Shown here: piece by piece, positions 30,657 through 36,037 of the stretch | Layout of the letters: every line of letters starts with the position of its first letter | How positions within the stretch are numbered: the stretch's first letter is position 1 | Virus record (IMG/VR): IMGVR_UViG_3300035703_002708 | Direction: 5' to 3' (one strand) | Length of the DNA: 64,000 nt | Source: a virus | Taxonomy: Duplodnaviria; Caudoviricetes | The notes under the pieces: generated by a model | What the model was told of the DNA's origin: nothing | Seen by the model: the letters and a program-made list of their open reading frames with translations, nothing else | Database searches by the model: none | Translations under genes and position numbers: made by a program

Positions 30657-30728
30657 GGTCCCGTCGTCTAGGGGTTAGGACACAAGATTTTCATTCTTGG
30701 AACACGGGTTCGATTCCCGTCGGGACTA
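30657..30728 (+). tRNA. tRNA-Glu (TTC)
   Basis: Acceptor GGTCCCG/CGGGACT; anticodon arm CAAGA-TTTTCAT-TCTTG; GTTCGATT T-loop; CCA not encoded. Confidence 0.92.
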
Positions 30729-30785
30729 CAAAAAAAATTAAAAAAAGTTTGTCTGTTAAAAACAAAACTATTATCTTTGTAAAAA

Positions 30786-30968
30786 ATGGGACAGTTCGTT
30801 ATCATAAAATTCATCAAAAATCAACAGGGAAAAGAGATGCCTGTGATAATTATAGATACTCATAATGAGGTCTTAGAGTTTGAGACATTCGAGGAGGCCG
30901 AAAAGATGAGAGATTTGATGGAAGCGAACTCAGATAGTGGATATCGTTACGAAGTAAAAAAAATATAA
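30786..30968 (+). CDS. Small hypothetical protein between tRNAs
   Basis: 60 aa; TATCTTTG at 30772-30779. Confidence 0.6.
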   Translation: MGQFVIIKFIKNQQGKEMPVIIIDTHNEVLEFETFEEAEKMRDLMEANSDSGYRYEVKKI

Positions 30969-30975
30969 AATATTT

Positions 30976-31052
30976 GGCCCCGTAGCTCAGTTGGATAGAG
31001 CAACAGCCTTCTAAGCTGTGGGTCGCACGTTCGAGCCGTGCCGGGGTCACCA
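30976..31052 (+). tRNA. tRNA-Arg (TCT)
   Basis: Acceptor GGCCCCG/CGGGGTC; ACAGC-CTTCTAA-GCTGT; encoded CCA. Confidence 0.95.
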
Positions 31053-31054
31053 TT

Positions 31055-31128
31055 GGACTTTTAGCTCAGTCGGTTAGAGCAACGGACTCATAATCCGTCG
31101 GTCGTTGGTTCGAGTCCAACAAGGTCCA
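31055..31128 (+). tRNA. tRNA with CAT anticodon (Ile2/lysidine or elongator Met)
   Basis: Acceptor GGACTTT/AAGGTCC; ACGGA-CTCATAA-TCCGT; overall resemblance to bacterial Ile2 but identity not resolvable by eye. Confidence 0.9.
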
Positions 31129-31144
31129 CAAAAGGAAATTTAAC

Positions 31145-31378
31145 ATGTATAGCATAACTTGGACAGTAGAAAAACGAAAAGAGGTAATTGATTTATTAGA
31201 TATTTATTTCAAGAAATATCCATATGGAGAAACCATTTATCAATCGGACAAGGCTCAAGAGGACGGTCTACAACTGTTATCTGAAATCTCTGATGTTATC
31301 CAACCAACTCGTAACGGTGATGGACAATCCAACACTATTAATTGGGATAATAGTTTCGGAGACCACGCAATTTTTTAA
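31145..31378 (+). CDS. Hypothetical protein
   Basis: 77 aa ORF. Confidence 0.6.
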   Translation: MYSITWTVEKRKEVIDLLDIYFKKYPYGETIYQSDKAQEDGLQLLSEISDVIQPTRNGDGQSNTINWDNSFGDHAIF

Positions 31379-31445
31379 TAAAAAATAATTTTTGGCGGAC
31401 TCAATTTTTTGTTTTACATTTGTAGAAACTAAAAGGATAAACACC

Positions 31446-31574
31446 ATGAAAAAAATTGTAGTTCTAATTTTGACCGTTATTACACTATCTTTGACCGTAA
31501 CTTCTTGTGCTACCTCTCATGGTGGTTGTAAAGGATTAAAAGCCCACCCCGATTATGGACGCAAATTTCGATAG
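31446..31574 (+). CDS. Small lipoprotein (42 aa)
   Basis: MKKIVVLILTVITLSLTVTS-C lipobox; TACATTTG at 31415-31422. Confidence 0.65.
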   Translation: MKKIVVLILTVITLSLTVTSCATSHGGCKGLKAHPDYGRKFR

Positions 31575-33045: not shown

Positions 33046-33100
33046 TTTGTCAGAATCAGAAATGTTTGTTAATTTTGTCCAACTCTTAAAAATAAACCCT

Positions 33101-33235
33101 ATGAAAACTTTCTTTTTTAAATCAAATCCGAATGAACTTTCAACTTTGGCAATACTTATCCAGATGGGAATATTTGCAACCGTTGGGCTAGGGTCCATAA
33201 TCGCAATATTTGAGTTTATCGCACATGTTAGATAA
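33101..33235 (+). CDS. Small membrane peptide
   Basis: In-frame ATG at 33101; one hydrophobic helix. Confidence 0.5.
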   Translation: MKTFFFKSNPNELSTLAILIQMGIFATVGLGSIIAIFEFIAHVR

Positions 33236-33509
33236 AATTTTCAAATACATCTTTTTGACGGGGATTATCTTCACGTTTTTTGTAACTGCACAAACCTGTT
33301 CAAGACCGATAACTCATAATAGAACTTTATATCAAACTGATGTCGTTGTAGTTCATTTTGACTTAACAAGAGATACGGTAAGAAGAGTTGTCTTTTTTGA
33401 TTACTTACAAATTGACCATATGGATAATCTCGTCAAAAAAGATGGATTTGTTGTTGCCACCAAAGTAAAAAAATACAAATATTTAAATTCAGTAAAAAAA
33501 TCTTTATGA
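33225..33509 (+). CDS. Secreted hypothetical protein
   Basis: Signal ending FFVTA|Q. Confidence 0.6.
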   Translation: MLDKIFKYIFLTGIIFTFFVTAQTCSRPITHNRTLYQTDVVVVHFDLTRDTVRRVVFFDYLQIDHMDNLVKKDGFVVATKVKKYKYLNSVKKSL

Positions 33510-34168
33510 GTGTTTTGAAGCTTGATAGTTCATCCAAGATTTGGATAACATCAGACACCCATTACGGACACAAAAACATTTGTCGTGGCGTCACAGATTG
33601 GCGTCTACCTGATGGTTCTATACCCGTAGACCAAACAAGAGATTTTTTGAGTGTGGAAAAAATGAACTCGGCAATTCTTAACAACATCAATGAGGTTGTT
33701 GGTCAGGATGATATTTTGATACATCTTGGTGATTGGTCCTTTGGTGGGTTTGAGAACATTCGTAAATTTTGGGACCAAATAGTATGTAAGAACATTCATC
33801 TTGTTTTGGGCAACCACGACCACCATATTGAACGAAACAGAGATGGTTCACAGGGGTTGTTTAAAAGTGTAAGTGACTATTTGGAACTTACTGTACCTGA
33901 TGTTGCAAAATTCGTATTGATGCACTATCCACTTTCTTCTTGGAATGGTTTGAACAAAGGAGTAATCCACCTTCACGGTCACGTTCACCTACCAAATGAT
34001 AAAAAATTTGGTAAAGGTAAAAAGATGGATGTTGGTATGGATGGTTCAGAAGAATTTCGTCCTTACAACTTAATTCGTGAGATTGTTCCAATTATGAGAA
34101 AGCGTGAAGTAATGTCTGATATGGAATTTGACCACCATACAGATGAAATCAAAGGAATAGTAGGATAA
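33506..34168 (+). CDS. Calcineurin-like phosphoesterase
   Basis: SDTHYGH, HLGD, GNHD, MHYP, HGHVH. Confidence 0.9.
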   Translation: MSVLKLDSSSKIWITSDTHYGHKNICRGVTDWRLPDGSIPVDQTRDFLSVEKMNSAILNNINEVVGQDDILIHLGDWSFGGFENIRKFWDQIVCKNIHLVLGNHDHHIERNRDGSQGLFKSVSDYLELTVPDVAKFVLMHYPLSSWNGLNKGVIHLHGHVHLPNDKKFGKGKKMDVGMDGSEEFRPYNLIREIVPIMRKREVMSDMEFDHHTDEIKGIVG

Positions 34169-34173
34169 TAATT

Positions 34174-34296
34174 ATGGGTAAAACTTATCGTAATACAAAA
34201 AACGATTCGCCAAAACAAAAAAACAAAGGGAATCAAAGTAAAAACAAATCTTCCAATAAAAAAAATAACAAAAATAAGGGATTTGATGATGAATAA
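34174..34296 (+). CDS. 40 aa K/N-rich basic peptide MGKTYRNTKND...GFDDE
   Basis: Translated by hand; fills the gap between two operon genes. Confidence 0.5.
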   Translation: MGKTYRNTKNDSPKQKNKGNQSKNKSSNKKNNKNKGFDDE

Positions 34297-34309
34297 TAAA
34301 ATACAAAAA

Positions 34310-34909
34310 ATGGACAATACTTTTTTTTTAAATCAGAGTATGGTCTTCACGGAGCGCAGTCTATATTTCATTCATAATAATGAGGATAGTGTAGTAATGG
34401 ATATTTGTGAAGATTCTTTGATGAAAAGAACCGCCGAACTTTTAATAATGGAGGGTGACGATGTCTTAGAAATAGGTTTCGGTATGGGAATATTTTCTGA
34501 TTATGTACAAAGTAAAAACATCAAAACTCACGTAATTGTGGAAAGTCATCCAGAAGTTTTCGAGAAATTGGTGTCATGGTCTGAAAATAAAACAAATGTC
34601 AATCCAATTTTTGGGGATTGGATAGATGTTTTACCTGAAATATTATCTCGTCAATATGATAGTGTTTATTTTGACACACATTATGATTTCAATACAATGT
34701 TTTTTTTAAAAAAAATACAAAATAATATTAAAAAAAATGGAAGATACTCAAGGTACACTTTAGACTCAAATGACACTTCCGCATTTAGTCAAGAAACACA
34801 CGGAACAGGGTTTAAGGTTCTGTATCAAGAAGAACACCAGATAGAAGTTAACAAATGTAAAAACGATACTTCTCCATTTTCCATTCCAATATGTATACTT
34901 TCCAAGTAA
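34310..34909 (+). CDS. SAM-dependent methyltransferase, GAMT/RMT2-like
   Basis: VLEIGFGMG, HVIVESHPEV, GDW, YDSVYFDT; start may instead be 34283. Confidence 0.7.
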   Translation: MDNTFFLNQSMVFTERSLYFIHNNEDSVVMDICEDSLMKRTAELLIMEGDDVLEIGFGMGIFSDYVQSKNIKTHVIVESHPEVFEKLVSWSENKTNVNPIFGDWIDVLPEILSRQYDSVYFDTHYDFNTMFFLKKIQNNIKKNGRYSRYTLDSNDTSAFSQETHGTGFKVLYQEEHQIEVNKCKNDTSPFSIPICILSK

Positions 34910-34975
34910 AATACTAATTTTTTAAAAATATTTAAATTTAATCGGTATTTCAGATAATTTTTGTATATTTGTCAA

Positions 34976-36037
34976 ATGTTAGAAACCTTAGAGAAATATC
35001 ATAATGAGGGGTTACTTTATAAACAAGTACACCCCTCTTTACCTCTAACCATATGGAACTACACTGAAAAGGTTCAATATGAAGGGTTATGGGATGATAT
35101 TACTCTAATGTCAAGAGGATTAGTGACCGACGATAAAGGAAATGTAGTTGCGAGACCATTTAAAAAATTCTTCAATTTAGAGGAATCAAAACATACTCCG
35201 ACTGAAAAGTTTGATGTATATGAAAAGATGGATGGGTCTTTGGGAATATTCTTTTATTATAATGGTGGTTGGGTAATGGCGACTAGGGGTTCATTTACTT
35301 CTGACCAAGCGGTGAAGGGTTATGAAATGATGTTTAAATATGATTTTGCATCACTACATAAGGACTACACTTATCTATTTGAAATCATATACAAAACAAA
35401 CCGAATAGTGGTTGACTATGATTTTGAAGATGTGGTTTTGTTAGGTATGATAAATACCAAGTCAGGTTATGAGGTTGATTTATATAGTGGGTCCGTGGAT
35501 GTTAGATTAAAAAATCTGATAAACAATTTAGGTTTCAAAGTCGTAAAAAAATATGATGGAATAAACGATTATAATACCTTAAAATCTATGGTGAGAGATA
35601 ACGAAGAGGGTTTTGTTGTTCGTTTTTCCAACGGAGATAAAATGAAAATCAAAGGTGAGGAATATTTGAGATTACATAAAATAATGACTCAAGTATCTAC
35701 CACTTCTATATGGGAAGTATTAAGTAACGGTGATGATATAGATGTATTGTTAAAAGATGTTCCTGATGAGTTTTATAACAAGGTAAAAACTTATGTTGGT
35801 AAATTAAAATATGCACATTATCAAATATCTGAATACTGTGGTAAGTATCACGATAGTTATAGATATGGGAAATATAATGATAAAGAGGTGGAACCAACCA
35901 AAAAGGAGTTTGCTGAGTTTGTTCAGAAAAATTTTGATAAAAAAGAACTCCACGCCGTTATGTTCGCCATGTGGGATAAAAAAGATTATTCTTCCATAAT
36001 ATGGAAATTAATAAAACCAAAATATGAAAAACTTTAG
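34976..36037 (+). CDS. T4 Rnl1-like RNA ligase
   Basis: RGLV..ARPFKKFFN, motif I EKMDGS, ATRGSF, YLFEII, EEGFVV, KIKGEEY; TATATTTG at 34964-34971. Confidence 0.9.
   Translation: MLETLEKYHNEGLLYKQVHPSLPLTIWNYTEKVQYEGLWDDITLMSRGLVTDDKGNVVARPFKKFFNLEESKHTPTEKFDVYEKMDGSLGIFFYYNGGWVMATRGSFTSDQAVKGYEMMFKYDFASLHKDYTYLFEIIYKTNRIVVDYDFEDVVLLGMINTKSGYEVDLYSGSVDVRLKNLINNLGFKVVKKYDGINDYNTLKSMVRDNEEGFVVRFSNGDKMKIKGEEYLRLHKIMTQVSTTSIWEVLSNGDDIDVLLKDVPDEFYNKVKTYVGKLKYAHYQISEYCGKYHDSYRYGKYNDKEVEPTKKEFAEFVQKNFDKKELHAVMFAMWDKKDYSSIIWKLIKPKYEKL

Follow-up and report, generated by a model that had tools for sequence, protein, structure and literature searches.

The window analyzed here is a 64,000-nucleotide (nt) stretch of the virus record IMGVR_UViG_3300035703_002708 (Duplodnaviria; Caudoviricetes), which belongs to a larger phage genome (~316 kb); all window searches reported below are confined to this stretch. 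It probably encodes a full RNA repair pathway composed of an Rnl1-type RNA ligase, a metallophosphoesterase (MPE), a cyclic-phosphate-processing receiver-like protein (cREC) and a small P-loop kinase, which together would form a split kit for the healing and sealing of RNA ends (Table 1). An earlier reading of the same DNA, made from the sequence only, had proposed a split and expanded system of this kind. The existence of a split end-healing and sealing system is supported by family assignments, intact catalytic motifs, conserved linkage and domain fusions. What the substrates are (RNA ends, and among them tRNA in particular), how MPE and cREC share the work, and the anti-defense role are inferred. 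The most likely function of the kit is mending RNAs, probably tRNAs, that were cut by host defense nucleases.

In the proposed route, MPE would open and remove the cyclic phosphate, while cREC, and possibly a second metallophosphoesterase (MPE2), would assist or take other end types. The 5'-OH would then be phosphorylated by the kinase, and Rnl1 would seal the 3'-OH to the 5'-phosphate. The polynucleotide kinase-phosphatase (Pnkp) and Rnl1 of phage T4 repair tRNA cut by the anticodon nuclease PrrC. Experimental knowledge of phage RNA repair comes almost only from T4, and the split kit of ligase, MPE, small kinase and cREC appears to be far more widespread. The instance described here extends the kit to giant freshwater phages with presumed Bacteroidota hosts and leaves current thinking unchanged. 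In addition, the comparison with related phages allowed the surrounding genes to be sorted: the distant kinase is predicted to belong to the kit and MPE2 perhaps belongs to it, the neighboring methyltransferase appears not to belong, and the neighboring SLOG protein mostly not.

Predicted enzymes of the repair kit

The ligase is the proposed sealing enzyme. The phrog_562 profile spans its residues 5–357 of 358, including the Rnl1-specific C-terminal region. The TIGR02308 model (positions 51–357 of 373) matches ligase residues 50–350 with 65.8 bits, the cut-off for an equivalog being 242; judged by these matches, the protein is a predicted member of the Rnl1 family and not an equivalog of the T4 enzyme. 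The match with T4 Rnl1 (2c5u) has an E-value of 2.3e-10, and the KMDG, FEI, EGFV and KIKG sequences of the ligase align with KEDG, FEF, EGYV and KIK of T4 Rnl1 (motifs I, III, IV and V, respectively). No Rnl2-type ligase was found in the window by tblastn.

As for the healing side, MPE is proposed to act on ends with 2',3'-cyclic phosphate or 3'-phosphate. It keeps the DxH, GD, GNH(D/E), H and GHxH metal-binding motifs, and 11 homologues show no variation at residues D17, H19, G75, D76, G102, N103, H104, D105, H140, G158, H159 and H161. In P0184, a homologue with 46% identity, MPE is joined to an AAA_33 kinase, and the kinase-MPE order of this fusion is the kinase-phosphoesterase order of Clostridium thermocellum Pnkp (CthPnkp). 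The MPE model was mediocre (predicted local distance difference test, pLDDT, 71) and had aq_1665 (1xm7) as its best match, followed by MJ0936 and lambda phosphatase; with such a model and best match, MPE could not be shown to be a specific relative of the CthPnkp phosphatase. Five other homologues (P0180, P0181, P0183, P0185 and P0186) have a length of 530–560 amino acids (aa), and their alignments include only about one half to three quarters of the query. The phosphoesterase gene of some phages may therefore contain an insertion, possibly an intein.

Opening of the cyclic phosphate is the proposed activity of cREC, which matches PF20274 with 83.6 bits (cut-off 27) and has invariant residues D8, D9, D60, H61 and D62. 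NCBIfam gave no match for cREC, MPE or the SLOG protein.

The kinase contains a GxxGxGKS P-loop and an invariant D36, which aligns with D35 of T4 polynucleotide kinase (Pnk). The PDB search with the single sequence returned only noise, and the identification came from profile and fold searches. A profile of nine sequences matches the T4 Pnk kinase domain over its whole length. The model built from a 58-sequence alignment (pLDDT 92.7) is closest in the PDB fold search to T4 Pnk and C. thermocellum Pnk, before other P-loop kinases (E 3.5e-6 to 7e-5, TM 0.70–0.76); for the CthPnk kinase domain, TM was 0.72–0.76. A profile search of 1.84 billion representatives found 8,152 clusters of this family at E ≤ 1e-10, mostly stand-alone proteins of 130–140 aa. 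Longer members are fused in both orders to Rnl1 (P0064, P0163, P0084 and P0095) and to an HD phosphohydrolase (P0159, P0148, P0085, P0094 and others), the latter being the HD-Pnk architecture, and a fusion with a CNPase domain was found in P0115. According to its modeled fold and the domain fusions, the protein is a predicted Pnk-type kinase. Since its orthologue is normally located inside the compact operon of relatives, between MPE and cREC, the kinase of the window is judged to belong to the RNA repair kit. The sequence-only reading had likewise counted this distant gene in a split system, and the compact operons, the Pnk-like fold and the fusions to Rnl1, HD and CNPase domains bear it out.

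MPE2 is a possible accessory phosphoesterase. Its homologues are located 0.7–5 kb from cREC in five IMG/VR loci (L180, L182, L209, L216 and L219) and in a Flavobacterium phage, immuto_3-5A, which lends some support to its earlier inclusion as a part of the system. In the window, MPE2 adjoins the gene of DHFR (1933–2322) and a PurA/PurZ-like gene, that is, it lies in a nucleotide-metabolism block. This block (1280–3329) consists of MPE2, DHFR and a short (336 aa) homologue of adenylosuccinate synthetase. The 336-aa protein matches phrog_1211 (PurZ-type) with E 5e-72 and scores under both the PurA and PurZ cut-offs of NCBIfam; it may be encoded by a purine or 2-aminoadenine pathway gene.

Linkage of the four genes in other phages

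Conservation of the neighborhood was analyzed in IMG/VR using the ligase, cREC, the SLOG protein and the methyltransferase in turn as anchors, and the window proteins were mapped onto each locus. Within 8 kb of the ligase, 21 of 24 viral loci (50–98% identity) encode MPE, 12 encode the kinase and 10 encode cREC; two of these loci have the methyltransferase and none has the SLOG protein. With cREC as the anchor (80 loci), genes found within 7 kb were those of Rnl1 (17 loci), an Rnl2-type ligase (15), MPE (22) and the kinase (16). At least 14 giant-phage contigs (80–434 kb) contain the colinear array Rnl1-MPE-kinase-(x246)-cREC within ~3.5 kb, where x246 is a further protein described below; ClpP is often encoded after cREC. 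Their clustering exceeds chance: dozens of related viral contigs have the genes of the ligase, the phosphoesterase, the kinase and cREC in company. A conserved neighborhood, as the sequence-only reading would have it, was found for these four in both the ligase- and the cREC-anchored loci.

In relatives of the window's phage, cREC was kept in all records tested. The complete 321-kb genome of one relative (G001) retains the four core genes, though scattered, with a distance of 47 kb between cREC and Rnl1. The core kit is real, and the description of the gene run as a complete-looking operon says too much: the gene order is scrambled between relatives, and what lies between MPE and the ligase changes from one to another.

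The x246 protein (~246 aa; L152:5852-6592, with homologues in L153–L169) is missing from the window; in at least 10 compact operons its gene comes after that of the kinase and before that of cREC. No Pfam, PDB or Atlas match was found for it, and the kit may include it as one more component. A more specific proposal, which we regard as tentative and rather doubtful, is that cREC is a metal-independent 2',3'-cyclic phosphodiesterase acting on broken RNA ends upstream of MPE. If this is true, the route would involve four enzymes (cREC, MPE, Pnk and Rnl1), perhaps with x246, and would differ in its chemistry from those of T4 and Clostridium.

Alternative explanations and neighboring genes

Several observations weigh against a single RNA repair pathway. 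In 58 of the 80 cREC loci, MPE is lacking within 7 kb; the gene order varies among relatives; and in the window itself the kinase is ~14 kb away from the cluster. The closest solved structure of MPE is that of a protein without an assigned function, and no experimental work on the cREC or MPE family was found in the literature. In addition, the complete 160-kb genome of Flavobacterium phage vB_FspM_immuto_3-5A (L230, MW353176) yielded no Rnl1, Rnl2 or AAA_33 kinase in the same searches that were positive in control relatives.

The last phage is the closest cultured carrier of MPE. Its region 5959–9578 contains tRNAs, MPE, cREC (annotated as hypothetical protein immuto35A_37) and the MPE2 homologue, all inside 4 kb. 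This genome without a ligase or kinase and the cREC-MPE2 pairs of the five IMG/VR loci therefore indicate that the phosphoesterases make up a sub-unit able to occur where the phage has no ligase. Such a sub-unit would either serve a host ligase or act on small cyclic-phosphate molecules, an activity that Iyer et al. put forward for cREC as well, and the contrast bears on the actual role of cREC.

The same data are the main argument for two separate units, in which Rnl1 and the kinase would repair RNA and the phosphoesterase side would be engaged in anti-signaling. MPE, cREC and MPE2 occur with neither ligase nor kinase across the 160 kb of immuto_3-5A, the five cREC-MPE2 clusters are devoid of Rnl1, and the literature contains both a proposal that cREC acts on cyclic ADP-ribose derivatives and a record of Nudix fusions (Iyer et al.). 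However, two units would not be expected from the kinase-MPE fusion in P0184, from the close Rnl1-MPE-kinase arrangement of 14 or more loci or from the location of MPE within 8 kb of Rnl1 in 21/24 loci. Moreover, the ATP-dependent Rnl1 requires a 3'-OH, and no HAD, HD or 2H healing enzyme was seen in the scanned window open reading frames (ORFs). This alternative is considered unlikely, and a joint RNA repair pathway of the four enzymes is preferred.

The sequence-only reading had gone further and listed the SLOG protein and the methyltransferase, to which it gave no role, and spare tRNAs with an expanded system. If all of these were working parts, the system would have a Hen1-like methylation step and a supply of spare tRNAs. 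Some features of the region agree with this. All of these genes share one strand and are closely spaced or overlap, and a promoter/terminator scan, the counts of which were at the level of shuffled sequence and the coverage of which does not extend to Bacteroidota promoters, found no terminator-like site at 31600–36300. The bacterial repair clusters of the Pnkp-Hen1 type and of Runella include methyltransferases, a SLOG protein is encoded inside a bona fide repair operon of one contig, and tRNA arrays adjoin the module both in L003 (a relative with 82% identity) and in immuto_3-5A. Considered component by component, however, this expanded system is quite improbable.

A profile of 15 homologues of the methyltransferase matches guanidinoacetate N-methyltransferase (GAMT; 3orh) with E 2.8e-25, and no Hen1 is among the profile matches at E ≤ 0.01. 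Conserved residues E43 and D131 align with the "WE" and "YDT" positions, which in GAMT hold the guanidino group. The family occurs in at least 536 viral loci. Among the best 80, which were checked for repair genes, only one has Rnl1/MPE nearby, and it belongs to a close relative of the phage. The usual viral neighbors are unknown proteins of ~692 aa and ~242 aa and the tail sheath, and a search of five relatives' records (four of them complete) found the gene in none. A Hen1-like enzyme, or a split Pnkp-Hen1 system, was rejected, the protein being GAMT/RMT2-like and unlinked to repair genes elsewhere. The methyltransferase is best classified, from its profile matches and distribution, as cargo of a variable slot outside the repair kit, and its earlier listing as a component is not sustained. 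According to the gene caller, its start is probably at 34289.

The cargo of the slot between MPE and Rnl1 varies: it is the methyltransferase in the window, and an intein-broken Rnl2-type ligase with other genes in L003. In the latter contig (L003:4940-7372), the Rnl2-type ligase extends over three ORFs, which encode a PHA02142 OB-fold with the N-part of an intein, a DUF7487 protein, and the C-part of the intein with RNA_ligase. It resembles a ligase gene that is split or interrupted by an intein.

The SLOG protein matches PF10686 with 60.7 bits (cut-off 28.2). A repair marker is present in 8 of the 43 SLOG loci, compared with 1 of the 80 methyltransferase loci; one of the eight, the unrelated contig L141, has the SLOG gene within a HAD_SAK-RlaP-SLOG-Pnkp-Rnl1 operon. 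The protein was found in one of the five relatives' records, and in Cellulophaga phage phi4:1 it is encoded among virion genes. Its best 120 relatives include fusions with NADAR, Macro, DUF4326, reverse transcriptase, helicase, RNase H and polymerase, and no fusion with a ligase or Pnk was detected among them. A link with NAD/ADP-ribose is probable from these partners. The phyletic pattern and the fusions led to rejection of SLOG as a core or integral part; with the weak linkage in 8/43 loci, it would be a loose associate of repair at best.

As for the tRNAs, in 32 window genes AGA accounts for 65% of the codons for Arg, GAA for 75% of those for Glu and ATA for 30% of those for Ile. The tRNAs for Arg and Glu thus decode the codons AGA and GAA, which the phage uses most for these residues. 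In the compact operons of relatives, no tRNA was found within 7 kb. The adjacency of tRNAs and repair genes, as seen in the window, in L003 and in immuto_3-5A, is lineage-specific. From the AGA/GAA bias and the compact operons without tRNAs, codon supply is therefore a simpler reading of the adjacent tRNAs than a decoy or spare role; a supply of spare tRNAs is not needed.

It is very improbable that the kit matures or joins the phage's own RNAs (tRNAs, transfer-messenger RNA (tmRNA) and structured non-coding RNAs) and does not deal with host-inflicted damage. The location of the cluster between tRNAs and tmRNA fits such a role, as does the tRNA/tmRNA island of Streptomyces phage StarPlatinum, in which Rnl1 and Pnk are encoded. 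Nevertheless, the compact operons have no tRNA in their vicinity, ARAGORN and Rfam detected no split, permuted or intron-bearing tRNA in the window, and the T4 precedent is damage repair. Finally, a hotspot of accessory genes that share location and not function, as the unrelated slot cargo of relatives and the homologue of the 336-aa PurZ-like gene amid repair genes in L013 and L020 might suggest, is extremely improbable in view of the same four families occurring together across ligase identities of 38–86% and of the kinase-Rnl1, kinase-HD and kinase-MPE fusions.

Known repair systems and gene map of the window

The kit of ligase, MPE, cREC and kinase appears to fall within the cREC-linked phage RNA-repair neighborhoods already predicted from sequence, where linkage of cREC with ligases was described (Iyer et al. 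2021, PMC7824862; Iyer et al. 2022, PMC9503650). In the sirtuin-linked configuration 2 of the latter paper, a T4-like tRNA ligase is combined with cREC, a nucleotide kinase, MazG and, in occasional cases, a phosphoesterase of the calcineurin-like type. The families linked in the present kit are the same (Rnl1-type ligase, cREC, small nucleotide kinase and calcineurin-like phosphoesterase), and so is the proposed job, namely, cleaning 2',3'-cyclic phosphate ends before ligation. The differences are that MPE is constant (21/24 loci) and not occasional, that the kit is scattered in the window's phage, and that the carriers are giant freshwater phages with presumed Bacteroidota hosts. No sirtuin, MazG, HAD, 2H or RlaP was found among the window ORFs scanned, which were approximately half of the total; most of the others are small. 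A literature search found no bench test of a split ligase/MPE/kinase/cREC cassette.

In its working, the kit resembles both T4 Pnkp with Rnl1 and CthPnkp, and it is a member of neither architecture. CthPnkp, which has a kinase and a binuclear metallophosphoesterase, heals broken tRNA ends, and T4 Rnl1 then seals them (PMC1920235). The window likewise encodes a Pnk-type P-loop kinase and a binuclear metallophosphoesterase by prediction, but in separate genes, whereas in the CthPnkp/Hen1 system one polypeptide of 870 aa is involved; an Rnl1-type ligase takes the place of the Pnkp ligase domain, and the neighboring methyltransferase is GAMT-like, with no Hen1. As in T4, the ligase is of the Rnl1 family, with its catalytic motifs present and its C-terminal region matched; the modeled kinase is folded like T4 Pnk, and one of its aspartates aligns with the catalytic one of T4. 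Unlike T4 Pnkp, the kinase has no fused HAD (DxDxT) phosphatase, and separate MPE and cREC are proposed instead. No HAD_PNKP match was obtained in the scanned window ORFs, and L141 does carry such a Pnkp. In contrast to the T4/PrrC pair, no PrrC-like host nuclease is known for the window's phage.

The third system to be compared is the HD-Pnk repair cluster of Runella slithyformis (Munir and Shuman 2017, cited in PMC6097658). Close relatives of the kinase family resemble it in that an HD phosphoesterase domain is joined to either end of the kinase, and Runella belongs to Bacteroidota, as does the presumed host here. The window has a metallophosphoesterase and not an HD enzyme, and no Tpt1 or MTase-HIT gene was seen in it.

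The three tRNAs and all genes named by the sequence-only reading were located where it had placed them, using ARAGORN, Rfam, Pfam and PHROG; for the distant P-loop kinase and the second phosphoesterase, this was confirmed by Pfam matches. The 114-aa, 99-aa and 108-aa ORFs of the run were additional to its list.

Table 1. Features of the repair region and of distant loci in the window
Feature	Position	Strand	Supporting match or remark
tRNA-Glu(UUC)	30657–30729	+	ARAGORN; Rfam
tRNA-Arg(UCU)	30976–31052	+	ARAGORN; Rfam
tRNA(CAU)	31055–31129	+	ARAGORN; Rfam
114-aa protein	31884–32228	+	phrog_4074, E 2.7e-5
YAcAr-family SLOG protein, 127 aa	32212–32595	+	PF10686, E 1.2e-16
cREC, 138 aa	32629–33045	+	PF20274, E 1.6e-23
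99-aa ORF	33210–33509	+	no family match; 4-nt overlap with MPE start
MPE, 220 aa	33506–34168	+	PF00149, E 6.5e-9; phrog_547, E 1.5e-44
GAMT/RMT2-like S-adenosylmethionine (SAM) methyltransferase, 208 aa	34283–34909	+	profile match to GAMT; Pfam sub-threshold
Rnl1-type ATP-dependent RNA ligase, 358 aa	34961–36037	+	PF09511, E 7.3e-17; phrog_562, E 2.1e-66
108-aa ORF	36024–36350	+	
Further tRNA(CAU)	38676–38751		ARAGORN/Rfam
tmRNA	39191–39561		ARAGORN/Rfam
Stand-alone P-loop kinase, 133 aa	18845–19246	+	AAA_33, E 5.3e-8, 33.7 bits, above cut-off
MPE2, YfcE/Metallophos_2-like, 218 aa	1280–1936	+	PF00149, E 1.2e-13; PF12850

Rfam scores of the tRNAs were 62.6–74.1 bits. Homologues of the 114-aa protein are encoded upstream of cREC in close relatives (L003, L004, L150, L151 and L013), and in the Atlas only virus-only clusters without a family were found for it; family and PDB searches gave nothing informative either. 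The C-terminus of the 99-aa ORF is 73% identical in L002; the ORF is absent from L003, where the gap between cREC and MPE is 38 nt. An ORF of 60 aa (30786–30968) lies between tRNA-Glu and tRNA-Arg.

Downstream of the ligase, a 279-aa protein encoded on the minus strand (36339–37178) contains many CxxC/CxxCxGxG-like zinc-finger repeats and shows a weak match with the DnaJ central domain. Its gene follows Rnl1 directly on the opposite strand in L001–L004 and is located elsewhere in the locus in L005–L006. The window, with a GC content of ~33%, additionally encodes the terminase (54304–56079) and portal (56141–57958) proteins, and a giant ORF of 2,746 aa occupies positions 6310–14550 of the minus strand.

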